Origin: a virus
IMG/VR virus record: IMGVR_UViG_3300034069_001614
Strand: one strand, 5' to 3'
DNA length: 64,000 nt
The notes beneath the pieces were generated by a model that did not search any database, had not been told where the DNA came from, and was given only the letters and a program-made list of their open reading frames with translations. The position numbers and the translations under genes were made by a program. This document shows positions 22,879 to 57,130 of the stretch, piece after piece (the stretch's first letter is position 1; every line of letters begins with the position of its first letter).

Positions 22879-25833
22879 TCACTGGCAAGACAAGCACTCG
22901 GAGTAATTGATCTGTTTAGCAGAAGCAGTGGGGGCAGAAAGGTCTTTACCAGCAGCACTAGACGTACTACCAACCTGTCCGACCGACATAGACCGAAGAT
23001 AGTACATCGTCTTGACACCCAGCTTCCAGGCCATCTGGTGAAGCTTCCAGAGGTCACGCTTGTCGACGTTGGGCTGGAGAGACAAGTTAAACGACTGTGC
23101 CTGATCAAAGAGTGGCGCACGATCCGCTGCGAACTCAACATGGTAACGCTGATCAACCTCAAACGAGGTCTTAAACACATCGCGTTCATCCTGACTCAGG
23201 AAATCAAGATGTTGGACACTACCCTGTTTTTCGGTAATACTGTTCCAGACGGCACGCGTGTCCTTACCATAACCAACCAAGATCTTCTGGAGGTAAGGGT
23301 TCTTTACCTCAAACGATCCATCCAAGGTTTTCTGCGTAAAGACGTTGGCAGGAATAATGTCAAATCCAGCCGAGGTACCACCGCAGATGATTGACACTGA
23401 CGCAGTGGGAGCTGCTGCCGTCTTATAGGAGAATCGTTCCATGACACCGTGTTCGGCTGCATCAGGGCAAGCCCCACGCTCTTCAGCAAGCCGGCGAGAG
23501 GCAGCATCCATCTGAGTCTTGAGGTGGTTGCAGATCTTGAGATTCCACACCTTTGCCATGACTGATTCATAAGGAATCATCTTGGACTGAAGGAACGAGT
23601 GAAAGCCCATCATCCCAACACCAATCGAACGCTCCCGCATGGCAGAATAGCGAGCCTTGGTGAAGCATTCACCGGCATTGTCAATAAAGTCCTGAAGGAC
23701 ATTGTCCATGAAATAAGCAATGTCTAAGAAGAACTGATCATTGTCCTTCCACTCATTAAACTTTTCAGCATTAGGCTGGAACAAGCAACACACTGCGGTG
23801 CGATCAATACCCTTATGATCCTTTCCTGTTGGCAGAGTAATCTCAATACAGTTACCCGTAAGAACACCTTCAAAAACGCCAAGATGCTCAAGAGGTTCAT
23901 TAAAGCAATAAGTATCGTCAACGCGACCATTATTCTGAATATCAACAACCGTCACAAACTGATGAGCATCACGTTGTGTTTCACGCTGAGTAACATCAAG
24001 ACGGCGGAAAGAAAGACCAAGATTGAGAAGACGCTGAGTATCGCCAGCGGTGATCACAAGACGGTATACGTCCTTACAGTCGAAGAAAGCATTACCTCCT
24101 TTACCATCAGGAAGCTCGTAGGTACCGGCAAGTCTCATTCTGTTTACCTTGGCATCCACGCCAAGGGTGGTCAGCATCAGCCTAACTTCCATGAGAAAGT
24201 CTTTATGGATCGAGGCAGCTTGAAGAGTTTCACAATCACCATTGCGAGCAACAGTGCCATCACCGTCCATGAAGCCAGCAAACCAGCTGAGCTTGGTTGC
24301 TACATTGCCGTCAATTGGAACAGTGAATTTGGGAAGAAGATCAGCTTTATCGAAATAAACAGCGTGACGCTTTCCTTCGGCTTCGTCTTCTACAACACGC
24401 AAGGGATCCATGCTTGCGAAATGAGAAAGGAGTTCTTTCTTTTTCGCGTAAAGATAAAGCCGAGGATTTCCATACTGATCGTTAGTGCCATCTGCCGTAT
24501 AGAAGCCATTACGATAAGCAAATTCAGAATCCCACGAGAATCCTGCTTCAACCACGGGAAGATTTGGTTTAGCAAGCTTATCTCCCTTACGAAGCTCATG
24601 GGTGGCTACCATCTTACTGTTGGTCGACCCTTCGCCATAGCCAAGCTGGATCTTCCACTTATGGTATTCTGTCACATCTAACTTGACGCCGTTTGACAGG
24701 TAAACCGAAACCAACTTCTGATTTTCACCAGTTTTAGCTACCTGTGCCTCCGACCACTGTTTACCGTTCCAGACTTCTTGGACAGTACCAGCGATCTGAT
24801 TAATAGGCATATACCCATCGCGCGTCAGAACACGAGTTTCTGGTGCCACGCACAGGTTGGATGTATGGGGATATAAACCAGACTTAGCGTGATGTTCAGG
24901 CGTTGCGCGCTTCACCGTATCGCTAAAGAAGATATACGGGGTACCGGTGTTCATGCGGGTCTGAAGGATCTTAATGGCAATGTCCTGAGCACGAACCGTT
25001 TCAACCACCTTACCGGTCTTGGGTGAAATAAGATCCCACTCCGCATCGTTCTCCACGGCTTCCATGAATGCATCGGGGATGCACACGCCGTGGTACAGAT
25101 TGAGTGCCTTACGATTAGGATCACCACCTGATTCATTGCGCAGTTCAATAAAAGCCTCAATCTCAGGGTGCGACACATCCATGTACACAGCTGCTGCACC
25201 ACGCCTGTTACCAGCCTGCGAGATACAAGCAGTAAGCGAGTCAATGACCTTTACAAAGCTAATCGCACCAGATGTCTTGCCCTTGGTACCAACCTTACCA
25301 CCGATCTCACGCAGACCACCGACATAGGTACCAATACCACCACCCTTGGCCCCCATCCAGATGTTTTCCACCCAGGTACCAACAATGTCTTCGAGTGAAT
25401 CATCCATGTCGTTGATGAAGCACGAGATCAAATTGCCTTTGGTGGTACCGCCATTGGAGAGAATCGGGGTAGCCGGCATACACCACAGCTTGGAAATATA
25501 GTCATACATCCGCTGAGCATGTTCGCCATCATTGGCATAGTAGCGGACGCAATTGGCAAAGCGGTCCTGATATGACTCATCTTCGGTGAGGTACCGGTCC
25601 TTTAGCGTTGCCTTACTGAACGGTGTTAAAAGAGCATCGCGGCTATCATCCACGACCACATCAGGAACAGGCATGTTCCGTAAAGGAGTATTCTTGATTG
25701 TTTTTGCTAAACGCTTGGTACTCAGTTCCATCACGCGAACAGAACCAAAATCGTCAGCGGTTGTTGGGGTATATTCCGTAGCTGCGTAATCCGTGTTTGA
25801 AAAACTGAGATCTGTCATGACTCTCATGTCCAT
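22879..25833 (-). CDS. nrdA: class Ia ribonucleotide reductase alpha subunit, intein-containing
   Basis: MPATPILSNGG, ISCF, GGGIG, SNL/C.EI, APTAS, C-terminal ECLSCQ. Confidence 0.97.
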   Translation of the reverse strand: MDMRVMTDLSFSNTDYAATEYTPTTADDFGSVRVMELSTKRLAKTIKNTPLRNMPVPDVVVDDSRDALLTPFSKATLKDRYLTEDESYQDRFANCVRYYANDGEHAQRMYDYISKLWCMPATPILSNGGTTKGNLISCFINDMDDSLEDIVGTWVENIWMGAKGGGIGTYVGGLREIGGKVGTKGKTSGAISFVKVIDSLTACISQAGNRRGAAAVYMDVSHPEIEAFIELRNESGGDPNRKALNLYHGVCIPDAFMEAVENDAEWDLISPKTGKVVETVRAQDIAIKILQTRMNTGTPYIFFSDTVKRATPEHHAKSGLYPHTSNLCVAPETRVLTRDGYMPINQIAGTVQEVWNGKQWSEAQVAKTGENQKLVSVYLSNGVKLDVTEYHKWKIQLGYGEGSTNSKMVATHELRKGDKLAKPNLPVVEAGFSWDSEFAYRNGFYTADGTNDQYGNPRLYLYAKKKELLSHFASMDPLRVVEDEAEGKRHAVYFDKADLLPKFTVPIDGNVATKLSWFAGFMDGDGTVARNGDCETLQAASIHKDFLMEVRLMLTTLGVDAKVNRMRLAGTYELPDGKGGNAFFDCKDVYRLVITAGDTQRLLNLGLSFRRLDVTQRETQRDAHQFVTVVDIQNNGRVDDTYCFNEPLEHLGVFEGVLTGNCIEITLPTGKDHKGIDRTAVCCLFQPNAEKFNEWKDNDQFFLDIAYFMDNVLQDFIDNAGECFTKARYSAMRERSIGVGMMGFHSFLQSKMIPYESVMAKVWNLKICNHLKTQMDAASRRLAEERGACPDAAEHGVMERFSYKTAAAPTASVSIICGGTSAGFDIIPANVFTQKTLDGSFEVKNPYLQKILVGYGKDTRAVWNSITEKQGSVQHLDFLSQDERDVFKTSFEVDQRYHVEFAADRAPLFDQAQSFNLSLQPNVDKRDLWKLHQMAWKLGVKTMYYLRSMSVGQVGSTSSAAGKDLSAPTASAKQINYSECLSCQ
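23851..24852 (-). mobile_element. intein with LAGLIDADG homing endonuclease in NrdA (334 aa)
   Basis: SNL|CVAPET...VLTGN|CIEI; GFYTADG and FAGFMDGDG motifs. Confidence 0.95.
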
Positions 25834-27409: not shown

Positions 27410-30400
27410 CTATACGTTTAATAACATCTTTAGTGAGCGCTCCACTGTATCGCGCTCAACCGGTGTTCTAGATTGAGCAGCAATATCCTGATCAGTAAAA
27501 CGAGCAGGATCACGGTTAAACTCATCTGCTGTGACAGGCGTGGGTAGATCTTCATGATTTACCATCTGGCGCACCAGGGTTAAATCGGATTCGATAAGCT
27601 TGCGTAAAGAAGGATCACGCTGAAGCTTGAGAGCTTTTTCTAGCTCCTCAATTTTGCCACGAACCTTTAACTGATGCTCTTCAGACAATTTAGATTTATT
27701 AGGCTGACCAGGAGTGATATAACTAAGTACCGTACCAGGCTTGATTCCGTATAGATCAAGATGCTTACCATGAAGAATAAACCACATAGCTAACAACCAT
27801 GCGATGACAGTATCATCGTTTCCCCCAGCTGCGTGATCAACTCTGTTGTTGCGCAAGGTCAATGTGTTGAGTTCTTGAATCAATGTTTGATCTTTAACGC
27901 GCGACGCAGCCTGTGACGTAGCTTCCATTAACGTTGATCCATAAAGCTGATCACGTTTTGCTTTATCGGTCTTGAAACCAAAAAAACGTTTCACCGATGT
28001 GTCCAAAAGCGACATGTCTCTGATGTCGACATTTGCAAATTCTTGTTCATGACGCTCTGATACAACACGGTTGTAGATTCTGATAAAAGGATTGTGTGAT
28101 GCTTTTCGTAATCCAAGGGAAACAATGTCAATAAGCGATGTTCCAGAACTCTTGTTTTCTGGAACCCAGATCATTTTAGGGAACATCAACAACAGCTTGT
28201 TGATCATGGCACCAACAACATTGATGTTACCAACAGTTGTTCTAAAGGTAAAAACAGTTTCTAAAGAACGAGGATCGATACCCACCAGTGTGGTTGCATC
28301 GCGGTCAATCATTTCAGAAGAATCACAACCCACCACAATAGGACGATCTCTGAATTGTTGAGAACTAACTACTTCTTTACTAAGATACCAGTAAATCACA
28401 AAGCCTTCATGAAGAAATTGGATATGATCTACTTCTTCTTGTGACCTGTTAATAGTTGCCAAAACTTCTTTTGAAATAATGGGTTTGTCAGCAATCGATA
28501 CTCGACGATTGAGGTAATCCCTCATGGTCTGTTCGGGGGTCATTCGATTACGTCTAATTTTCTCACGTAACCAATTATTATCTTTACCTAGTTGAAGATG
28601 TGAAAATTGGCCCAAAATCATTTTTTGTGGTGAAGAAGCTTCAACAATCTGATGGAGTTTTTCATTGTTTTCTACATCGTATAACGACTCAGCAAACGGC
28701 ATTGCCCCATCAAGAATCGCCATTGCTTCTTTACACTCAATCGTAGATGGGTCACCTGCAGTTGTTGTGAGAATGTTAGAATGGGGCTTCCCATTCTTTT
28801 TGGCATTTTCTCTGGCTGTACCCGTTGATGCCATCGCGATGGGGTAAGACGTTCCTACGTTAGAAAAAAATTCAGCCTCGTCCCAATGTGTTACAGGGAG
28901 TGAAGCACCACGCGCTTGTTTATCTGCAGCTGCTTTTTCTTTCTGAGCCACAAAAGTTACATAGTGAGTTTTTAACTGAGCGTAGTAAATTTCTTCAGCA
29001 TTAGCTTTATCTTTGTACCGGTCTGCAATAAGCCACCACTTGGGAAGGTTCTCACCAAAAGATTTGACGCGTTTGACATTCTCACGACGCAAATTATCAT
29101 CTTTATTGAATCCACCAATGGTAAATTCAGATCCTGACGAATATAAGATCCAAGAGAGTAGACTTAACGCGCAAACGGTATTGTGAGTAACAATAAAATC
29201 ATCAGTAATATACAAATGATCAGGATGATCAACTTCGATACACTGAGCTTCCCATTCGCCGATCGACTCAACGGCTTTGATGCCCAGTTTCAGTTTACCT
29301 GCAAATTTATAACAGTCTGAGATTTTATCAAGTTTGCGAGGAAGTCGAAAGAGAGATTTTGGATTGTCAATTTTGATACGAAGAATGTAAGCAGTTCTTC
29401 CTTCTCGTTTCTCACCGTTGTGAGTATAACAAGTTTTCTTGTCCTTTATCCGACATACACCTCCCAAACTACGAACAAGATATTGAACTTGATGAGCAAG
29501 ATTCAGACTAGTGGTGCAGAAAGAAGGAGACCCTCCTTTGATTTCGCTAGCTCCATCGACAGTACCATCGGTGTCCATAAGACCTTGAAGCAAAGCAATT
29601 TTCTGTGCAGTAGAACCTTCCATGTACTGGACAGGGATAGTCTTTTCATAGCTAAGTTTGTCCAGATTTAAGGATCTGATGGTTTGTAGAAAAGGAGAGA
29701 ATCTACCAGCAGGAGTTCTCGATCTATCAACGATGCGCCAATCTACACCAGAATCGTATACCAATTCTACATCTGTAGGAAGAAGCCTTCTGAGCTCATC
29801 AAGAATAAAATTATCTTTGCTAGAAATACGAGCGCCATTGGTAAGACCACCGTCACCAATAAGAGCGCCAACGACGTATGGATCGAGAGGAAGATCAACA
29901 TCTTCTTTAATTTCAGGCTGGACAAGCGGGACGAATAATCCAGCTTCAGTGCTAGGATGTTTTTCCATCCGATTCATTATTTCGCGAAGAGTAATAACCC
30001 TCCATTGATTATCTTCTGGAGTCCAGTAACGATTATAAACCTTCCATAGGTGATCATCACAACAGTCGGTCCAACGACCATCTTCAAAGTAAACGCGATA
30101 AATTGGTTTCTTTCCTTGAGGATACACACCGACAACATCGGAGGTTCCTCCATCAGGAATCACAACTTTGTCGCCGACTTGCATATCACCCATTCTTTTC
30201 CAACCTTTAGGGGTTTGAATAAGAGAGTCAAGTCTTTGTGCTTTTCCCAATTGTCGGGGAACCATAGCAGTGTAATCAATTCCATTAAGAAAACACCATG
30301 TCATTGCACAGCTACTGCGATCTAGACGGAAAGGAATCGGAGTACCTCCCTGTTCGTAGATGCGAATACATTCGCGATGCCAGTACCATGCATTACGTCT

Positions 30401-30643
30401 AGATTCTATCATTACCTTTGTGCGAAGAATCTCATTTTCAGGCGTATCTTCTTCTAAATCATAGACATCGACGTTTTTAAGATCTGGATCATATAAAGCA
30501 AGCATAAACGCATAGTTCTTAACACCCATGCGTTTAAGCAATTGTGCTGTTCTTAAAAAAGAAGTATTTTTAGTAGTGATATGGGGGATAGCTTTTAAGT
30601 TACCTTTATCATCCTTCCAATCTTTTTGAAAAAGAATAGACAT
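27410..30643 (-). CDS. terL: terminase large subunit (phiKZ gp25-like), intein-containing
   Basis: Walker A PRQLGK|T, Walker B HWDEAEF, RNaseH VVGCDSS and DDTVIAW. Confidence 0.93.
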   Translation of the reverse strand: MSILFQKDWKDDKGNLKAIPHITTKNTSFLRTAQLLKRMGVKNYAFMLALYDPDLKNVDVYDLEEDTPENEILRTKVMIESRRNAWYWHRECIRIYEQGGTPIPFRLDRSSCAMTWCFLNGIDYTAMVPRQLGKAQRLDSLIQTPKGWKRMGDMQVGDKVVIPDGGTSDVVGVYPQGKKPIYRVYFEDGRWTDCCDDHLWKVYNRYWTPEDNQWRVITLREIMNRMEKHPSTEAGLFVPLVQPEIKEDVDLPLDPYVVGALIGDGGLTNGARISSKDNFILDELRRLLPTDVELVYDSGVDWRIVDRSRTPAGRFSPFLQTIRSLNLDKLSYEKTIPVQYMEGSTAQKIALLQGLMDTDGTVDGASEIKGGSPSFCTTSLNLAHQVQYLVRSLGGVCRIKDKKTCYTHNGEKREGRTAYILRIKIDNPKSLFRLPRKLDKISDCYKFAGKLKLGIKAVESIGEWEAQCIEVDHPDHLYITDDFIVTHNTVCALSLLSWILYSSGSEFTIGGFNKDDNLRRENVKRVKSFGENLPKWWLIADRYKDKANAEEIYYAQLKTHYVTFVAQKEKAAADKQARGASLPVTHWDEAEFFSNVGTSYPIAMASTGTARENAKKNGKPHSNILTTTAGDPSTIECKEAMAILDGAMPFAESLYDVENNEKLHQIVEASSPQKMILGQFSHLQLGKDNNWLREKIRRNRMTPEQTMRDYLNRRVSIADKPIISKEVLATINRSQEEVDHIQFLHEGFVIYWYLSKEVVSSQQFRDRPIVVGCDSSEMIDRDATTLVGIDPRSLETVFTFRTTVGNINVVGAMINKLLLMFPKMIWVPENKSSGTSLIDIVSLGLRKASHNPFIRIYNRVVSERHEQEFANVDIRDMSLLDTSVKRFFGFKTDKAKRDQLYGSTLMEATSQAASRVKDQTLIQELNTLTLRNNRVDHAAGGNDDTVIAWLLAMWFILHGKHLDLYGIKPGTVLSYITPGQPNKSKLSEEHQLKVRGKIEELEKALKLQRDPSLRKLIESDLTLVRQMVNHEDLPTPVTADEFNRDPARFTDQDIAAQSRTPVERDTVERSLKMLLNV
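29180..30241 (-). mobile_element. class-3-type intein with LAGLIDADG endonuclease in TerL (354 aa)
   Basis: GK|AQRLDS...IVTHN|T; DHLW, QCIEV, THN; GALIGDG, LQGLMDTDG. Confidence 0.93.
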
Positions 30644-30646
30644 ACA

Positions 30647-31492
30647 TTACTCTTTCATTTTTGTACAAGGGGTAAACAGAGCATCTTCAACGGACCACCC
30701 ATATTTCTTAATACGGCAAGTAAGCACTGCGTACGGAACATCTGTAAGAAGACTCAATTCTGTCATATTGTAGCAGTGATGTTCATAGGGTATCGTTCTG
30801 TTATCGTAATCGTGGCTTAAAATATGTCCGGCTTCCCAACTTTGGGCATATCGATATTTTGCAACAGGAAGAGGTAATTTATTAATTTCAGCAAAAACAC
30901 TAAGTTCCAAATATTTACTGTTTCCCATTGCTACAACACTGTTCTCTGGTACAGTTTCTCTATATTTACGACTTCTTCTGGTGTTATTCATTTGAACTTT
31001 ACGAGTTTCCCATCCGCAATTACTCGGTTCATAATCACCATCCAAGTTGTATCGTTCAATGGTTCCTCCGGGAGGCCTAGGACCCATGTCATCGCAAAAG
31101 TTTTGATAACCTACACTTCGAGGTTTTGCAGCCCATCGATCACATAGTTTTGTGGGTCGGGGCTTTTTTCCACCATAATTACAAAATGCTTTACATTTAG
31201 GGTTAAAAATTCGCTGTAATATATCGGTATAGACGCTGTATCTGGGATCTCGCGATTTCGCGTTTCTACCTGTTCTAGCTATAACTTGTTCACGATTTTC
31301 GTAATAGTACTTTTTACGTCGTTGCGATTCTTGTTCTTTTCTACCTAAATATTTAATGCGATTGTATTCGAGTACACAAGGTTTACAAATGGGATTGCTG
31401 TTGATATCCCGGTAACGGGGTCCTTGACATTTTGGACATGGTTCCGGAGATTGGGTACGGATTTTTCTGGACATATAAGTTCCTTTATTCAT
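30647..31492 (-). CDS. free-standing HNH-type homing endonuclease
   Basis: NYGG...CDRW...F.DDMGPRP..TIER...GDYEPSNCGW...QMNN; N-terminal CxxC pairs. Confidence 0.85.
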   Translation of the reverse strand: MNKGTYMSRKIRTQSPEPCPKCQGPRYRDINSNPICKPCVLEYNRIKYLGRKEQESQRRKKYYYENREQVIARTGRNAKSRDPRYSVYTDILQRIFNPKCKAFCNYGGKKPRPTKLCDRWAAKPRSVGYQNFCDDMGPRPPGGTIERYNLDGDYEPSNCGWETRKVQMNNTRRSRKYRETVPENSVVAMGNSKYLELSVFAEINKLPLPVAKYRYAQSWEAGHILSHDYDNRTIPYEHHCYNMTELSLLTDVPYAVLTCRIKKYGWSVEDALFTPCTKMKE

Positions 31493-31589: not shown

Positions 31590-32228
31590 CTATTCTGTTA
31601 TAAAACGAGACTCAGGTACCACGACATGAGCACCACGGTTGAGTGAACTGCCTTCCTCGGTAGTAAGGATGTTCTTCTCCACCGCTGATTCAATTAGCCA
31701 TTTGTAGAAATCGTGCATGGCTCGGTAGGATGCTGATACATCCTGCTCACGCTGAAGCACATAGGAGGGAATAAACAAAGCTCCCTCAGAACCCTTGTTA
31801 ATCTTATCTGCCAGGAGATAGAAATAGGCAGAGGTGTCAAACACGATGGTGTCGAGATGAACCTCTAGAGTAGCAGGTGTTGCCACTAGGGCACTCATCA
31901 CGTTGATCAAGCCAAAAAGCGGTGTATCACTTTCTAGCGACAGAATCGTTAAGTGGATATGGTCGGTTTCCTTTAAGCTCGACAGCCACATGGAGAGTGC
32001 TTGACAATAAGGCGAATGATCCCAAGTCTTGCACACATAAATAGTGACATAGAACAAACCATTTTCACTAGCGATGTTGACCGGTTTAAACGGAACATTG
32101 TCACCAGGTCTAGCTTGTCCCTGAGCCAGATCCTGATCAAGAGATTCCAAGCCAATACCGGTGTTATCATCAATGGTGATGAGATCATCACCCCATGCTT
32201 CGATAGCAATTGCTTCTCTAGCAATCAT
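31590..32228 (-). CDS. degenerate ClpP-fold protein with GLES-type propeptide
   Basis: aligns by eye to ClpP domain of neighbour (ETDHIHL, LTTEE) but lacks catalytic Ser/His. Confidence 0.6.
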   Translation of the reverse strand: MIAREAIAIEAWGDDLITIDDNTGIGLESLDQDLAQGQARPGDNVPFKPVNIASENGLFYVTIYVCKTWDHSPYCQALSMWLSSLKETDHIHLTILSLESDTPLFGLINVMSALVATPATLEVHLDTIVFDTSAYFYLLADKINKGSEGALFIPSYVLQREQDVSASYRAMHDFYKWLIESAVEKNILTTEEGSSLNRGAHVVVPESRFITE

Positions 32229-33388
32229 TAGTTCTGCTCCCTTCCCGAGATAGCACCGACACGAGCAATCGCTTCTCTGCCAGAAATGTAAATGTCAGCT
32301 GATTTATCAATCATATCACTTACCTCTTCCTGGGTAAACAACCCGATCTTGACAATGCGCGCCAGCTTATCGGTGATATAGTTTACCGCAAAAATCGCTT
32401 TAGCTGAAATGTCGGTAGTTTTACCAGCCAGAAGCTGCGAGCTCATGTGTTGCATGAAATAAGAACCAGGACGAATATGACGTTCGTGTCCTGCTGCCCA
32501 GATCGCCGTTGCAGCAGAAGCTACACCACCTTCGGCGTAAGTGATGACCTTTGCCTTGGTGCGATTAATAGCAGAGATAATCCTTCCCATCAAGACAACT
32601 GAACCACCAGGACATGCAAGATGGATATGACAGGTATCCGTCTCTCTAGCGAGTTCTAGTAACCGGCACAGAGTATCGACGGTGTTCGTCCATGCTCGCA
32701 TATCCAAAGGCGAATACATGACGAGATGATAGTTAAACTCACCAGGCGTCGAACAGACGGTTTTAATACGAGGACCATTGACTACATCAGGTAAAGCGAT
32801 GATCACACCACCTGCTTCATCCCTGGGCGCAGGACGGTCTTGATTGGGTTTAACAAAAGGAACGATGCCAGCAACTTCTACTGAAGTAACACCATCTCTT
32901 TTATACTCAAATGCAGGCTTAAGTGAGGAACCATCACTTTTTAACCATGATAAGAAAGCATCATTGGTAAAACTGGTAATAACACCGAGACGATCTTTAC
33001 CTGATCCATCGCCGAAAACCGACTCATAGGTCATCTGGACTTCATCACTAGATCCAAAGCCGAGCATGACTTTATGTTCATCAAACTGACCACTAGCGAC
33101 ATTGACCTGATCGATAACGAAGATAGGATCAGTATCACTAGCGTAGGAGGAAAGATACATATCGATCTCCTCACCATGCGCATCGGTCGTGCCTAGAATA
33201 AAACCATAAGCAGAAGGCATGACACCATCAACATTATAGCCATCTTTAGAAATCTTGGTGCGAGTGTCACCGGCAAGAAATTCGATAACGATGGTAAGGC
33301 CTTGAAACGTGTAGGGCTTATCTTTCTCCCAGTCGATATGATTATTAGGAAGAGGACTGACAGGACTAGTGAGATCACGCTGACGCAT
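32228..33388 (-). CDS. inorganic-pyrophosphatase-like domain fused to ClpP-like serine protease
   Basis: YGFILGT.DAHGEEID...DQ...FDEHKVMLGF (InPase); CPGGSV...VASAATAIWAAG...FMQH (ClpP). Confidence 0.85.
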   Translation of the reverse strand: MRQRDLTSPVSPLPNNHIDWEKDKPYTFQGLTIVIEFLAGDTRTKISKDGYNVDGVMPSAYGFILGTTDAHGEEIDMYLSSYASDTDPIFVIDQVNVASGQFDEHKVMLGFGSSDEVQMTYESVFGDGSGKDRLGVITSFTNDAFLSWLKSDGSSLKPAFEYKRDGVTSVEVAGIVPFVKPNQDRPAPRDEAGGVIIALPDVVNGPRIKTVCSTPGEFNYHLVMYSPLDMRAWTNTVDTLCRLLELARETDTCHIHLACPGGSVVLMGRIISAINRTKAKVITYAEGGVASAATAIWAAGHERHIRPGSYFMQHMSSQLLAGKTTDISAKAIFAVNYITDKLARIVKIGLFTQEEVSDMIDKSADIYISGREAIARVGAISGREQN

Positions 33389-34298
33389 GGCTTAGATTTC
33401 CTTTGTTGTCTTTAGCATCAAAGTTTCTAGAAGTAAGGATAAGAGCTCTTTCAACAGCGTTGTTAATGTCAGAAAGAAAAACAGCATTTCTTTCTATCAA
33501 GAAAAAACCAAAATTCATTACCTCTAGTGTTTTAACATAAGTAAATTTTTCTTTGTTTTGAGACTGTAAAACTTTGTTCTTTCGATAGATAAGATTTAGT
33601 CTTTTCCACAATCCTTCAATCTCTACATATCGCTTTTCTGATTGAACAAGTGTTTTATGAATTTCGTCCTCATTCGACTTAAATTCCCTAACAGCTTGCT
33701 TAAAATTATCAGATGTCCAGCCAGAAACAGAAAAAGGCACAACGCCTGTCGTATTAGAATGTTCCCATTTCAGAGATTTTAGCTCTTGGCGATCATGTAG
33801 TACATCATCGGTTTTGATAGCAATCTGCTCATCATGAAGCTTATTCCATCCAGCAATATCAGCCGATTTTGGAACCAATGCAAGCGCCCGTTGCATCAGT
33901 CGAAAAGCTTTCTTTCTAACAGCTAGCAGGGTCACAATTTCATCATGGCGTCTGGTATGACTATTCTTATCATTGATCACTAAGTTTGCCGACGAAACCT
34001 TATCTAGTTGTTTACTAGGATGTTCACCGACATAACCAATATTCGATAACCTTCCAACGATGGCTTCTTTAATGTTTGTCCCTAATCCCTCTAATGCTAA
34101 ATCAAAAGCTGGATCATTGTTGATTTGATCAAGAATCTCCAGATGCTGACTAAACATATCCAACGATTCAAAGCCAGCAAAACTATCGTAATTAACAAAA
34201 GCAATGAGCTGGGGATCAGGACCTAACTCATCTGTGATATTGATGTACGCTTGACCGAGCTTTACTTGTTTAAGTAGATTGTCAGTGTCGTAAATCAT
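33375..34298 (-). CDS. putative internal head protein with propeptide
   Basis: N-term paralogous to 35250..36125; GFES and ALEG sites. Confidence 0.65.
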   Translation of the reverse strand: MIYDTDNLLKQVKLGQAYINITDELGPDPQLIAFVNYDSFAGFESLDMFSQHLEILDQINNDPAFDLALEGLGTNIKEAIVGRLSNIGYVGEHPSKQLDKVSSANLVINDKNSHTRRHDEIVTLLAVRKKAFRLMQRALALVPKSADIAGWNKLHDEQIAIKTDDVLHDRQELKSLKWEHSNTTGVVPFSVSGWTSDNFKQAVREFKSNEDEIHKTLVQSEKRYVEIEGLWKRLNLIYRKNKVLQSQNKEKFTYVKTLEVMNFGFFLIERNAVFLSDINNAVERALILTSRNFDAKDNKGNLSHASA

Positions 34299-34300
34299 CT

Positions 34301-35158
34301 TTAGATTTCCTTGAAGAAGTCGTTAAAGATCGATTTCCTATAAAGATTAGGAAAGCGCTGGGAAAGGCTAGGATCAGGCGTGACAATCGTCGTCGACTGG
34401 ATAATCCGGTGGATATCAGAGGTACCAAAGATCTCGTTAAGTTCACTATTAGAAATAGATTCTAAAGCAATCTGATCGATCTTAAGATTACCATTCTCCA
34501 TAACCGTCATTTCGCAATCGAGAAACTGATCTCCTGCAAATGATTCTAAGCCAAGCGCATGGGCCTTGTCACTTCCGAAAAAACCCGAAGCCCCCACAGT
34601 ATCAAACGTAACTAATGAACGCACATTACGATATTTACGACCGTTGGATTCCACTTTCGTATCAACATATGCTCTTAAAGAAAAAGCGGTATTGACAACA
34701 GGATCTTCAAGACTTTCTTTAAACACAGCCCCGTATGGCCCAGTTGGTTTAAGATCAGCTCGCAATACCACAGTGCCATCGCGAGAAGGAGAATCGGTGT
34801 AGAAACTGGTAAACAAATGTGACGTTGTTTTCTCATCTACGGTAGTAAGCCGCTGAATCTTCTCACTGTCATTAGCAAAGCCTTGACCAATAAAAGAAGG
34901 ATGTCCATACTCGCCAAGAAGCTTTCCTTGTTTTAGGACAATATTAAAACGACTAGTTGGAGATGTTATCTGATCCATCACTGATTGAGGATCGTAGTAG
35001 GTATTTTGTTGAGTTGTTTCCCCCAACGTCATCATTGGTAAACCGGAGTATACCCCGTTCGCATCACAGCGCAAACGCCCTACTCGGTTGTTCTTCCCAA
35101 CAAACGTACTTTCTGCCCTGAAACTTAGGTTGCGAGGAATAGATGGATTGATCGGCAT
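34301..35158 (-). CDS. prohead maturation protease (phiKZ gp175-like)
   Basis: LGEYGHP, AFSLR, VTFDTV; C-terminal GLES/ALES autocleavage-type sites. Confidence 0.9.
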   Translation of the reverse strand: MPINPSIPRNLSFRAESTFVGKNNRVGRLRCDANGVYSGLPMMTLGETTQQNTYYDPQSVMDQITSPTSRFNIVLKQGKLLGEYGHPSFIGQGFANDSEKIQRLTTVDEKTTSHLFTSFYTDSPSRDGTVVLRADLKPTGPYGAVFKESLEDPVVNTAFSLRAYVDTKVESNGRKYRNVRSLVTFDTVGASGFFGSDKAHALGLESFAGDQFLDCEMTVMENGNLKIDQIALESISNSELNEIFGTSDIHRIIQSTTIVTPDPSLSQRFPNLYRKSIFNDFFKEI

Positions 35159-35198: not shown

Positions 35199-35218
35199 AT
35201 AAAAAAGAAACAAGACCA

Positions 35219-35244
35219 GATAAGGAGGCGTAAGCCTCCCTATC
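35219..35244 (-). terminator. terminator hairpin with G-U pair
   Basis: GATAGGGAGGC/GCCTCCTTATC on minus strand, T-rich tail. Confidence 0.65.
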
Positions 35245-35249
35245 CCTAG

Positions 35250-36125
35250 TTATTTCTTTTCAAGATTGTGCGAGACTTTCGTCAGCAACGATTTAACATC
35301 ACCAAGAATACTAGTTGACGTACTCATCGAACGACGTGACTCAGCCACGGACTTTGAAATGTAAGATTTGGTCTTACCTTCAGCTTTATCAGCAGCACCC
35401 AATGCATTGGCAACATGATCAAATTTTTCAGCTTGTTTCTTAGCAGAAGCTTCTATCTTTCCACAAGCAACCGTGTACCATTGAGCAGCATTAGTGTATT
35501 TTTCAGCAGTCCAACCAGATTTGTCAAAATTGGAGTTAGTTGATGTAAGTTTATCCAATAGATCATCAACATCGCTCTCCCAACCACCACCTGGATTAAA
35601 GACATGATCGTCGGTAAACTTAGCCCATGCCTTTTCATCAATGGTGGAAGGAATAGCTGTGGTAAACGTATCCTCCATTCGAAACGCGAGTTCGAACGCT
35701 TTGGTTAAGGTCACAAAATTGGTAACAGGAGGAGTAGCCTTAGCATTAGCAATAACACCCAGTGCACCAACACCTAACAGCGGCAAGGCTGCAGCCCCAC
35801 CTGTAACGGCCAGAATGGCACCTCCACCTAGTAACCATTTGCGATACTTGATAACCGTGTCTTTAAGGCCTTCAGTGGCCAGACTATCAAGAGCATCAGG
35901 ATTAAGATTAGACAAGAGGAATTGATGCTGGTCAAGTAGATCGAGCGATTCCAGCCCCAGACCTACATGCTCTTCCAGTGAGTTGTCATAATTGACAAAC
36001 AAGAGAAGCTGTTTGGAGGGACCATATTGCTTGGTAATATCGATATACGCTATAGCCATATCACGTTCACGTAGCGTATTATCGACTTGCTCAAGCTGGG
36101 TTTCGATGTCGTTGAACTCTGACAT
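35250..36125 (-). CDS. putative internal head protein with propeptide and hydrophobic segment
   Basis: AAGGA RBS MSEFND; GLES, ATEG; GGGAILAVTGGAAALPLLGVGALG. Confidence 0.7.
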   Translation of the reverse strand: MSEFNDIETQLEQVDNTLRERDMAIAYIDITKQYGPSKQLLLFVNYDNSLEEHVGLGLESLDLLDQHQFLLSNLNPDALDSLATEGLKDTVIKYRKWLLGGGAILAVTGGAAALPLLGVGALGVIANAKATPPVTNFVTLTKAFELAFRMEDTFTTAIPSTIDEKAWAKFTDDHVFNPGGGWESDVDDLLDKLTSTNSNFDKSGWTAEKYTNAAQWYTVACGKIEASAKKQAEKFDHVANALGAADKAEGKTKSYISKSVAESRRSMSTSTSILGDVKSLLTKVSHNLEKK

Positions 36126-36138
36126 ATTGTTATCCTTG

Positions 36139-36318
36139 TTAAGATTTGATGTTTTTGATTCGTTGATGGTCACCAGTGACGCGCGAGATATATTCTACAT
36201 TGCGTTCAATGGATTGCGCGGCGGCTTTGAAACGATCTCCTTTTCCTTCACTAGGAATGGGAACATCCAATCCTCCTAAATAGAAGTTCATTAGTAGAAA
36301 TGATTTCTTAACACCCAT
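36139..36318 (-). CDS. small hypothetical protein (59 aa)
   Basis: manual translation MGVKKSFLLMNFYLGG...IKNIKS; fills the gap. Confidence 0.5.
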   Translation of the reverse strand: MGVKKSFLLMNFYLGGLDVPIPSEGKGDRFKAAAQSIERNVEYISRVTGDHQRIKNIKS

Positions 36319-55291: not shown

Positions 55292-57130
55292 TTATACCAG
55301 CCTAAAGGTTGGAAGAGTCTTTTTGGCCACAACCATTTGAGCAGAACCAAGATTATTATCGATGGTGGTGAAAATATCCAACGCCATGAGATAATCCTTA
55401 GGGTCCGTGCCAAATTGCACCGCAAAGATAGTTTGATCAACCGGGAACTTTGTGGGCGCTGTTCGCGACAATCTTCCTTGTTCCTCTACACCATAATTAG
55501 CAGGATCGCTGTAGAAGTTTTCCAACTGTTGTGATGGATAGTCATCCAGCACAAAAGGTTCAATGGGATATTTGGTATCTTCTGAATCCGGACTAATCTT
55601 ACCATAAGGCAGAGCACAAGCATTAAACACCGTTGCCAGCGGATTGCTGATGATGGTGGCATCCTTGGCGATGTAGGGCAAAATAGTCTTACCCATAGTG
55701 TTGGTGATCACCACAGAACGACGGGATAACAGATACGTACGCTGACTAAGCTCACGCTCTTCTAGGGCTTTCAAGAATTGCTTGGCTTCGGGATCATTGT
55801 CTTGCGGAATAGAGAATTTGTTAGGGTACACACCTTCCATGGAGAAAGGGAAAACAGGTGATGATTGCATGGCGTGGGTTGGAATAGAACCACTATCAAA
55901 CATCACACTGGTGTTAACCACCAACACATTCCACAAAACACCCGCCACCAAGGCTTCCAATGCCCTACGGCCATCGGGATGGGTTGTTAGCGGATGACTA
56001 AAGGATGATGACAACAGTTCATTGACATCATCAAAGGTATTAATTTTGATCTTGTTTTTGATGGTCCAATTAGTACCAGTAGTAAGTCGTGCGTTGAGAT
56101 ACAGCGCACGGTTGATATGCTCCACAAGATAGCTAGTGATGGCCTTCCACTGACCTGTCGGTAGACTCTCTAGAATCTTACTGATCTGCTTATGCAAAAC
56201 AATGGGAGACTTGGTCCGCTCTGCTTCATTAACCACTTCAATGCAACTGTTTCGGATAGAAACAAAAGCCTGGGTAGGAAGGTCAATAACATCGAGATGA
56301 TTGTAAAGAATCCTGAACACAAAGGGAGATCCCAGTGTTTGATCAGGAACAATGGTAAAGAAGTCTTTTACTACATCAAGCGGATCATCAAGAATGAGCT
56401 GATGAAAAGCCCCTACCCGGTTGATAACAAAGTTACTGCATTTCAGTTCTTGACGTTGGGCAACAACAATACGGTTATCTTTAGCCGCTTCATCACCCCA
56501 AATTGGTTTTGCTCTTACCTCAGCAAAGGTTGCAGAGGAATCCTGTAGTTCATCAAGAGGATTGGGCTTATAAACAACACTGGTCTCCACGTCGACTTTT
56601 ATGGGTTTATCCATTGGAGTGGATGGTGAGACAGTGGGCGCAGGAGCGGTTCTGGTCATGGTTGTTGTGTCGTCCACCAAATGAGACCCTGGTCCTCGCG
56701 AACCAGGCTGTTGGTTGTTGAAGCCGCTATTGTTACGGTTAAACCCTCCGCCGCTAAAGCCAGAAGAACTACCAAAACCACCACCGCTGAAGCCTCCCCC
56801 GTTGTTAAAGCCTCCTCCTTGCTGCTGTTGTCGCACCTGGGCTACATAGTTGTTAAAGATATTTTCAACAAAAGCCCCAACAATCTGAAAAAGTAGATCA
56901 GGTTGGACAACATTGTTACCATTGAGCCGACGTGCTTCAGTGGATACATAGTTAAATAAGAACTGTGCGTTATTGTATCCTTGTTGTCCACTACGAGGAT
57001 TATACTGCGTCATGAATTCATTGCAGAATTGGGCACCCAATCGTTGAGCGTTGTTACGCAAAATGCCTTCAGCGCAGTTCAAAATGGCGTTATATGCAGT
57101 TTCGTCCATCGGGGAATACCTTTTTTCCAA
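55292..57130 (-). CDS. hypothetical protein with Q/G/F/N low-complexity linker (neighbour of nvRNAP subunit)
   Basis: 612 aa; QQQQGGGFNNGGGFSGGGFG linker. Confidence 0.75.
   Translation of the reverse strand: MEKRYSPMDETAYNAILNCAEGILRNNAQRLGAQFCNEFMTQYNPRSGQQGYNNAQFLFNYVSTEARRLNGNNVVQPDLLFQIVGAFVENIFNNYVAQVRQQQQGGGFNNGGGFSGGGFGSSSGFSGGGFNRNNSGFNNQQPGSRGPGSHLVDDTTTMTRTAPAPTVSPSTPMDKPIKVDVETSVVYKPNPLDELQDSSATFAEVRAKPIWGDEAAKDNRIVVAQRQELKCSNFVINRVGAFHQLILDDPLDVVKDFFTIVPDQTLGSPFVFRILYNHLDVIDLPTQAFVSIRNSCIEVVNEAERTKSPIVLHKQISKILESLPTGQWKAITSYLVEHINRALYLNARLTTGTNWTIKNKIKINTFDDVNELLSSSFSHPLTTHPDGRRALEALVAGVLWNVLVVNTSVMFDSGSIPTHAMQSSPVFPFSMEGVYPNKFSIPQDNDPEAKQFLKALEERELSQRTYLLSRRSVVITNTMGKTILPYIAKDATIISNPLATVFNACALPYGKISPDSEDTKYPIEPFVLDDYPSQQLENFYSDPANYGVEEQGRLSRTAPTKFPVDQTIFAVQFGTDPKDYLMALDIFTTIDNNLGSAQMVVAKKTLPTFRLV

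Follow-up and report, generated by a model that had tools for sequence, protein, structure and literature searches.

The window analysed here, a 64,000-nucleotide stretch of viral DNA (IMG/VR record IMGVR_UViG_3300034069_001614), contains a gene that joins a domain related to inorganic pyrophosphatase (InPase) to a ClpP-type protease domain with an intact catalytic triad. It is followed directly by a second gene (hereafter, the partner gene), whose product has the same fold as the protease half and has lost the catalytic residues. Both genes are encoded on the minus strand and are described below with the parts of the fusion, in positions of the window and lengths in amino acids (aa).

32228-33388, minus strand: InPase-ClpP fusion gene, 386 aa from an ATG start, with both Pfam domains above their curated cutoffs.
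32939-33316, minus strand: InPase (family-I pyrophosphatase-like) domain, residues 25-150, delimited by Pfam and by hhalign to E. coli pyrophosphatase (PPase).
32792-32938, minus strand: inter-domain linker, residues 151-199, partly of low model confidence, with a conserved D-E-A-G-G-V motif.
32255-32791, minus strand: ClpP-fold protease domain, residues 200-378, delimited by structure comparison and triad alignment.
31590-32228, minus strand: partner gene, 212 aa, of the ClpP/crotonase fold without the conserved catalytic Ser or His.

Both halves of the fusion were recognized by Pfam, i.e., InPase (PF18823) at residues 25-150 (98.8 bits, cutoff 26.8, E = 3e-28; profile positions 13-135 of 135), and CLP_protease (PF00574) at residues 225-374 (49.7 bits, cutoff 20.2, E = 5e-13). 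These were the only two Pfam domains, and no MuF, portal or MPTase domain was found, so the fusion does not have the architecture of a polyvalent protein. When the halves were profiled against PHROG, the N-terminal half matched the InPase segments of giant polyvalent proteins, 'minor head'/portal proteins and phrog_20705. The ClpP half matched phrog_1827 best (E = 5e-31) and also phrog_5410, both annotated as 'ATP-dependent protease', with weaker matches to the 'head maturation protease' families phrog_94, phrog_1684 and phrog_133. The AlphaFold2 (AF2) model of the fusion, built from an alignment of 55 sequences, had a mean per-residue confidence (pLDDT) of 89.9, falling to 61-80 across residues 171-210; the low global score (pTM) of this model is accounted for by its two-domain make-up, with a flexible connection at about 171-210. 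Relatives that have the ClpP domain only align to the fusion from about residue 179 onward. An earlier note on this DNA had proposed the two-domain reading from short strings in the translation, all of which are present in the fusion (YGFILGTTDAHGEEID...DQ...FDEHKVMLGF, VASAA and FMQH).

The catalytic triad of the protease half was placed by alignment to Coxiella ClpP and E. coli ClpP (90% probability, 141 columns), at the following codons.

32516-32518, minus strand: codon of S291, the catalytic Ser, equivalent to E. coli Ser97.
32447-32449, minus strand: codon of H314, the catalytic His, equivalent to E. coli His122.
32294-32296, minus strand: codon of D365, the catalytic Asp, equivalent to E. 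coli Asp171.

All three residues are invariant in the 55 fusion-family members, and the ClpP Ser and His were found in all 30 wider relatives checked. Together with the Pfam match, the triad alignment and this invariance confirm the ClpP-like C-terminus with intact Ser and His that the earlier note had described. Residues 199-378 of the model also compared well with solved ClpP structures, with VIA Z scores of 17.0 (7eko_C) and 16.9 (9dqk_A) and a root-mean-square deviation of ~3 Å over 164-169 aligned residues. In Foldseek, the best 50 of at least 500 matches (E ≤ 0.001) were all ClpP, with a probability of 1.00 and a template modelling (TM) score by target of ~0.7.

The alignment to E. coli ClpP begins at precursor residue 53 and the CLP_protease match at profile position 22, which leaves ~50 N-terminal ClpP residues (the axial loops) unaligned; the linker and the InPase domain stand in their place. 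Given this replacement, the apical face on which an unfoldase docks would be crowded. The 'ClpP ring' of the earlier note, if meant as a classical ATPase-driven machine, is therefore doubtful, as the N-terminal axial region to which the unfoldase docks has no aligned counterpart.

The same crowding bears on the possibility that the fusion and its dead paralogue form a cytoplasmic, host-directed protease working with host ClpX or ClpA or with a phage adaptor, InPase being an unrelated metabolic add-on. The triad is intact, the best PHROG match of the ClpP half is to an 'ATP-dependent protease' that lies outside the head modules of Vequintavirinae, and the patchily distributed ClpPs of jumbo phages have been interpreted as host-directed (Iyer et al. 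2021). However, beyond the replaced axial loops, the position of the gene in a late head module is invariant, and both the partner and the ClpP-only orthologues have motifs of the type cut by the phage prohead protease (both points are detailed below). We consider a cytoplasmic role very improbable.

The N-terminal half aligned to E. coli PPase with a probability of 91% (hhalign, E = 1e-6), and the model has an all-beta core followed by helices, with pLDDT >90. By this alignment, Y61, H71, E73 and D76 of the fusion correspond to Y55, D65, D67 and D70 of the mature E. coli enzyme, and the position that departs most from it lies within the following motif.

33176-33178, minus strand: codon of H71, in the InPase motif D-A-H-G-E-E-I-D at residues 69-76, placed by alignment to E. 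coli PPase.

In PPases of family I, the ligands of the catalytic metals are D65 and D70, and D67 serves to activate water. Only D70 of these three stays Asp in the fusion, which does not have the D-x-D-x-x-D signature. Position 71 is D in 97% of 131 InPase domains of the broad family, taken from unrelated proteins, and H in 53 of the 55 members of the window's clade, 98% of which also have E at position 73 and a new Asp at position 69; the signature D-G-D-x-V-D of the broad family reads D-x-H-G-E-x-x-D in the window's subclade. A gradient is seen across the wider fusion family, from D-G-D-P-[VI]-D in the deep branches (P0078 and P0074) through intermediates with D-G-E to the His, which is found only in the window's subclade. 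The drift from D-G-D to D-G-E to H-G-E can be regarded as an experiment of nature on the family-I pyrophosphatase metal site. The remainder of the site is fixed, as E36, R43, Y61, D76, D93, D103, E104, H105, K106, Y121, D127 and R133 are invariant in the 55 fusion members and at least 89% conserved in the 131 broad-family domains; among them are an E20-like Glu, the Y55-like Tyr and the D-E-H-K block. The N-terminal InPase of the earlier note accordingly stands as a domain (Pfam, E = 3e-28), but the signature quoted there conceals a substitution, H-G-E-E-I-D having replaced the classical D-G-D-x-x-D. The strict conservation of the altered site argues for an activity that is retained in modified form, perhaps with a different metal or substrate preference, and the side chain of D69, two residues upstream on the strand, may take over from D71.

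No experimental structure of the InPase domain family was found. An InPase-like C-terminal domain occupies residues 638-761 of the Pa193 portal gp19 (PDB 9b41, chain L), in which residues 529-765 have no cryo-EM density. Portals of Pbunavirus (Pa193/E217 portal gp19), often annotated as 'minor head protein', end in such a domain.

According to the earlier note, the fusion would be ejected with the DNA and a virion RNA polymerase (RNAP), InPase clearing pyrophosphate (PPi) for early transcription and the ClpP ring degrading or remodelling proteins. PPi clearance is a general proposal for virion-delivered InPase domains, made where the domain was defined and its portal and polyvalent fusions and their probable packaging into virions were noted (Iyer et al. 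2017, PMC5512222), and heads of the SPN3US type eject a multisubunit RNAP along with many internal proteins (PMC10052503). The head-module position of the fusion and the packaging-type motifs around it would fit, and the window encodes a split beta-like RNAP subunit of the phiKZ type (22-23% identity to jumbo-phage 'RNA polymerase beta'), which may or may not be part of the virion enzyme. However, InPase is tied to RNAP genes by no fusion, adjacency or co-occurrence, and the ClpP-only sister lineages manage without InPase. Moreover, the PPase signature of the window's subclade has His in place of its first Asp and Glu as the putative general base, and no chimallin-like protein was identified in the window. 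A role in clearing PPi for a co-ejected polymerase thus seems unlikely to us.

The partner gene is closely tied to the fusion. Its start overlaps the stop codon of the fusion (TAATG, read directly at the junction) behind a Shine-Dalgarno-like run, an arrangement that indicates translational coupling of the two genes. Simpler sequence comparisons did not relate them: BLASTP of the partner against the fusion gave nothing significant (best E = 0.24), a plain hidden Markov model of the fusion ClpP half did not detect the partner, and a profile search of the PDB with the partner family returned no meaningful match. A profile of 23 partner sequences aligned by hhalign to the fusion ClpP half over 148 collinear columns (E = 4e-4, 35% probability). 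Structure comparison agreed, as ClpP clusters filled 10 of 10 rows of structural neighbours in the ESM Atlas (TM 0.55-0.59), and Foldseek placed the AF2 model of the partner, with a core pLDDT >90, in the ClpP/crotonase superfold (crotonase/ClpP1). In the alignment of the partner family, the position equivalent to the catalytic Ser is variable (S, L or T) and the equivalent of the His is absent. The nearest Atlas clusters of the partner are labelled Bacteria, mostly Verrucomicrobiota, which hints weakly at the host of this clade of uncultured phages or at its binning.

Complex prediction supports binding of the partner to the ClpP domain of the fusion, with a score of 0.65 against 0.01 for the best control (a model confidence and not a measurement, given as the median of three runs for a 1:1 pair with the partner free of its propeptide). 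The mark used for this score is reached by 58 of 80 solved complexes and by 2 of 110 mismatched pairs. Chains of the chloroplast ClpP complex of Chlamydomonas (7eko/7ekq), which we take to be a heteromeric ClpP/ClpR-type assembly, are among the best structural matches of the fusion ClpP half.

We profiled the family and its genomic context in metagenomic data. A large protein collection contained 57 other metagenomic proteins with both Pfam domains (41-83% identity), many on phiKZ-like contigs of 250-310 kb, and an exhaustive search of 50%-identity representatives gave 18 clusters at E <1e-30, all ~370-475 aa with both domains. In every locus examined, the order was the S80 prohead protease, sometimes an extra head protein, the fusion, an open reading frame (ORF) of 180-210 aa, the large terminase (TerL) and a protein of ~412 aa; the fusion-carrying loci compared (L001, L003, L005 and L011) include ones with as little as 36-41% identity. 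Next in closeness come ClpP-like proteins of 250-256 aa that have no InPase, in the order S80, ClpP, an ORF of ~245 aa and TerL, and this ORF was found by the partner-family profile (E = 8e-18 and 9e-16). A partner gene is thus located downstream of every fusion and every ClpP-only orthologue examined. Given that the ClpP-only loci have the same slot and the same partner family, the conserved core is a pair of ClpP-fold genes between prohead protease and terminase, and by this comparison InPase was added at the N-terminus in a single large branch of the pair. The head-assembly setting that the earlier note had assigned to the fusion is borne out by this conserved late head module. The features of the module that bear on packaging are the following.

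34301-35158, minus strand: Peptidase S80 (phiKZ gp175-type) prohead protease (PF20034, E = 5.5e-33; phrog_3014).
33375-34298, minus strand: 307-aa head-module protein with G-F-E-S-L-D at residue 42, a paralogue of 35250-36173.
35250-36173, minus strand: 307-aa paralogue with G-L-E-S-L-D at residue 73.
35218-35245, minus strand: terminator-like hairpin of 12 pairs and a T-run, just upstream of the S80 gene (a consensus match only).
32142-32153, minus strand: G-L-E-S motif at partner codons 26-29, at the end of the disordered N-terminal propeptide, a putative S80 cleavage site.

The hairpin is likely the 5' boundary of a transcription unit that runs from the S80 gene to the partner gene. Disorder is predicted for partner residues 1-45 (pLDDT <50), which contain [IVM]-G-L-E-S-[FL], with [GA]-x-E at the same alignment column in 20 of 23 orthologues. 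The C-terminal tail of the S80 protease has two G/A-L-E-S motifs (residues 203 and 231), and each of the six orthologues examined keeps the tail motif, at about residues 197-231. The two 307-aa proteins that flank the S80 gene are paralogues (BLASTP E = 4e-20) with one motif each near the N-terminus, and both are probably propeptide-bearing internal head proteins. Across the 23,029 aa of window ORFs, the cleavage-type motif occurs 9 times, all in head-type proteins; beyond the partner, the S80 protease and the 307-aa pair, four further occurrences are all in large virion-type proteins. The motif is also present at about residues 44-47 of several head-module proteins of locus L003 and at about residue 30 of the ClpP-only orthologues.

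This distribution can be read against SPN3US, in which the S80 protease cleaves C-terminal to A-x-E, favours Ser at P1', removes N-terminal propeptides from head proteins and also processes itself (PMC10052503). As the same motif is shared by the partner, the S80 tail and the neighbouring head proteins, we infer that the ClpP-fold pair enters the prohead. In the InPase-bearing lineages, the dead partner would then be the carrier of the targeting and processing propeptide. Cleavage by S80 between the two domains of the fusion was considered and rejected: S/A/G-x-E occurs in the linker of only 21-24 of 55 sequences and at scattered positions, and the conserved S/A/G-x-E of the fusions (positions 74, 302 and 372) fall inside folded domains.

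A relative of the fusion is present in a cultured phage. In tblastn of the fusion against cultured phages, no record reached 80% coverage of the query. When viral proteins were searched by structure, protein S0A103 of Cellulophaga phage phi13:1 ranked first (E = 2e-20 over the full query); its low identity to the fusion and its length had kept it out of the sequence searches.

KC821625 10045-12111: phi13:1 gp020 (AGO49031.1; phrog_20705), 688 aa, with InPase, ClpP and a C-terminal extension.

The gp020 gene lies in a structural module and its product was detected as a virion component by tandem mass spectrometry (MS/MS; GenBank note), which is independent experimental support that an InPase-ClpP protein can be part of a virion. 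The sequence has been public since 2013 with the genome of this cultured phage, under the sole annotation 'putative tail protein'. Its ClpP-plus-C-terminal region matches the head maturation protease family phrog_94 (E = 9e-32), and a role in head maturation or as an internal head protein is more likely for gp020 than one in the tail. The virion loading that the earlier note had suggested for the fusion is indirectly favoured by this MS/MS result together with the conserved S80-type propeptide of the partner. Phage phi13:2 has no homologue.

The InPase-ClpP pairing is not unique to the window, and gp020 lowers the novelty of the bare architecture. The statement of the earlier note that it knew of no described fusion holds for the main text of Iyer et al. 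2017 (PMC5512222), in which ClpP is not mentioned, and for Iyer et al. 2021, in which only standalone ClpP is described, in some jumbo phages; it does not hold for public databases or for the cultured phage genome. The architecture search that the note had proposed finds both domains, in an architecture already present and automatically named there: JGI names fusion-family members 'ATP-dependent protease ClpP protease subunit', and the ESM Atlas has a separate 620-aa cluster of 53 members called 'Clp protease/Inorganic Pyrophosphatase domain-containing protein'.

The match of gp020 to phrog_94 also bears on a purely morphogenetic explanation, in which the active and dead ClpP would be a second maturation protease or a component of the prohead core, degraded or expelled before or during packaging, with InPase carried along as a passenger or serving assembly, and having no action in the host. 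It is common for a head maturation protease to be of the ClpP type, the fusion ClpP half itself matches three such families (phrog_94, phrog_1684 and phrog_133), the pair sits between prohead protease and TerL, and the partner has a propeptide motif. However, the phage already encodes a canonical S80 prohead protease with conserved autoprocessing-type sites, the InPase active-site residues besides D65 and D67 are strictly conserved, which argues for catalysis, and gp020 persists in mature virions. We judge a purely morphogenetic role improbable.

Given these observations, we lean, with only modest confidence, toward a head-internal heteromeric complex of active and dead ClpP that bears a PPase-derived domain, enters the prohead by way of the partner propeptide and is trimmed by the S80 protease. 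The fusion, an active ClpP-type domain with an N-terminal InPase on a flexible linker of ~50 residues in what would be an internal head protein, would be expressed from a late operon that also supplies the S80 prohead protease, and would be coupled to its dead ClpP-fold paralogue. The two proteins would co-assemble in the style of ClpP/ClpR, and the complex would pass into the prohead, where S80 would trim the partner propeptide at G-L-E|S. The ClpP chamber would then cleave peptides or unfolded proteins without a dedicated unfoldase, either within the head or once ejected along with the DNA, and InPase would hydrolyse PPi or a related phospho-anhydride through its remodelled metal site (D65 to His, D67 to Glu and a new Asp two residues upstream). 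Packaging, the S80 cut, the type of oligomer, both enzymatic activities and any ejection are thus proposed from sequence, synteny and models.

Several observations weigh against this head-internal complex. The complex score may partly reflect model memory of the ring contacts in solved ClpP structures. The fusions of the window, L001, L003 and L011 have no S80-type motif, so that packaging of the fusion would depend on its presumed association with the partner, and the most divergent partners examined (L001 and L011) have no N-terminal propeptide. The best score of the fusion ClpP half is to phrog_1827, a non-head gene in Vequintavirinae. The N-terminal fold is identified by Pfam, hhalign and secondary structure, as the whole-model Foldseek and VIA results were filled by ClpP and crotonase. 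The non-canonical site of the window's subclade also weakens a plain PPase reading, and plain PPase activity is uncertain because of the changes of D65 to H and D67 to E.

A bolder form of the head-internal complex would be a capsid-delivered ring of active and dead ClpP that works independently of an unfoldase and has a His-containing PPase-derived domain. Its dead subunit would serve as an S80-trimmed adaptor for head targeting, and the whole would represent an unrecognised class of ejected effectors in an uncultured, deep-branching lineage of phiKZ-like jumbo phages. We offer this form tentatively, as a possibility that we rather doubt.

The phage itself is uncultured, and its gene content identifies the window as part of a phiKZ-like jumbo phage. 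In addition to Peptidase_S80, phiKZ-type matches in the window include PhiKZ_VTX (gp28), the phiKZ gp29 sheath and DUF7193. Core proteins are 22-32% identical to those of cultured relatives, and megablast of the region returned no match. Two further genes lie downstream of the partner.

27410-30643, minus strand: large terminase with a probable intein, 1077 aa (PHROG TerL families, LAGLIDADG_3 and weak Hint matches).
30647-31492, minus strand: HNH endonuclease between partner and TerL (phrog_3377, E = 1.5e-30).

TerL is 719-866 aa in L001, L003, L005 and L011, and given the length of 1077 aa here and the LAGLIDADG_3 and weak Hint matches, an intein probably interrupts it. The HNH gene is not at the same position in those four loci; it is specific to the window and looks like a mobile insertion. 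Elsewhere in the window, the large subunit of ribonucleotide reductase (22879-25833, minus strand) is 984 aa against 614-653 aa in relatives, with LAGLIDADG_3 inside the barrel domain, which would be a second intein. A 612-aa ORF (55292-57130, minus strand) has no PHROG match, no tblastn match in 50,697 phage records and one cleavage-type motif (A-L-E-A-L).

Phages of the phiKZ type pack and eject tens of megadaltons of internal head proteins, mostly of unknown role. An active and dead ClpP pair with a PPase-like domain, linked by motif to S80, would be a concrete and testable internal or ejected enzyme complex, and would give a head equipped with S80 a second protease system. The recurrence of InPase with ClpP in the virion of an unrelated cultured siphophage suggests a functional link of the two activities and not a chance fusion, and phi13:1 and its relatives offer a laboratory-tractable model. 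Beyond the earlier note, the analysis adds that the dead-ClpP partner is obligatory, that an S80 motif is shared, that the PPase metal site was remodelled in steps and that this cultured homologue exists.

Compared with known systems, the fusion shares with bacterial ClpP (MEROPS S14, which includes the heteromeric ClpP1P2 and ClpP/ClpR complexes) the fold (Z 17) and the aligned Ser-His-Asp triad, at a sequence identity of ~20-23%. It differs in the 200-residue N-terminal addition that replaces the axial-loop region and in having no adjoining unfoldase gene. As in ClpP/ClpR, an active subunit is paired with a paralogue, the heteromeric contact here being predicted; the partner is far more diverged than ClpR and is seen only by profile and structure comparison. 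The ClpP-like 'ATP-dependent protease' of Vequintavirinae (phrog_1827, e.g., phiTE_141) is the top PHROG for the fusion ClpP half (tblastn identity 27-28%), but in phiTE and SSBI34 it lies outside the head module, amid genes for ribonucleotide reductase, PhoH and methyltransferase, and has no InPase. With this location among nucleotide-metabolism genes, phrog_1827 was rejected as a prohead protease. The tblastn matches in phiTE and SSBI34 cross the annotated start into the upstream ORF, and starts may be mis-called in several records.

With the InPase domains of polyvalent and portal proteins (PF18823), the fusion has in common what is probably a virion-associated context and the core E36, R43, Y61, G62, D76, Q94, D103-E-H-K106, Y121, D127 and R133. 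The window's subclade differs from them by D65 to H, D67 to E, G69 to D and G45 to K, and the domain is fused here to a ClpP-type protease instead of a portal, MuF or giant multi-effector protein. With regard to head maturation in phiKZ and SPN3US (gp175/gp245), the S80 protease adjoins the fusion module here, and the A/G-x-E motif after disordered N-termini and in the protease tail fits the A-x-E specificity of the SPN3US enzyme. The cultured phiKZ-like phages in the collection have neither an InPase-ClpP fusion nor a related ClpP (tblastn). A close architectural parallel comes from phi13:1, a siphophage of Bacteroidota with 77 kb of DNA that is placed in the genus Cbastvirus alongside phiST and phi19:2 and has no S80 protease. 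Its gp020 has InPase (residues 21-155, E = 5e-55) and CLP_protease (209-347, E = 8e-18) in the order of the fusion and with the ClpP Ser and His present (hhalign probability to the fusion family 99.4%, ~20% identity to the fusion), and differs in an additional ~340 aa at the C-terminus and in a canonical D-G-D-P-L-D PPase motif. The fusion therefore combines known kinds of parts, i.e., the virion fusions of InPase, the ClpP-type proteases of phages and heteromeric ClpP with an inactive subunit.

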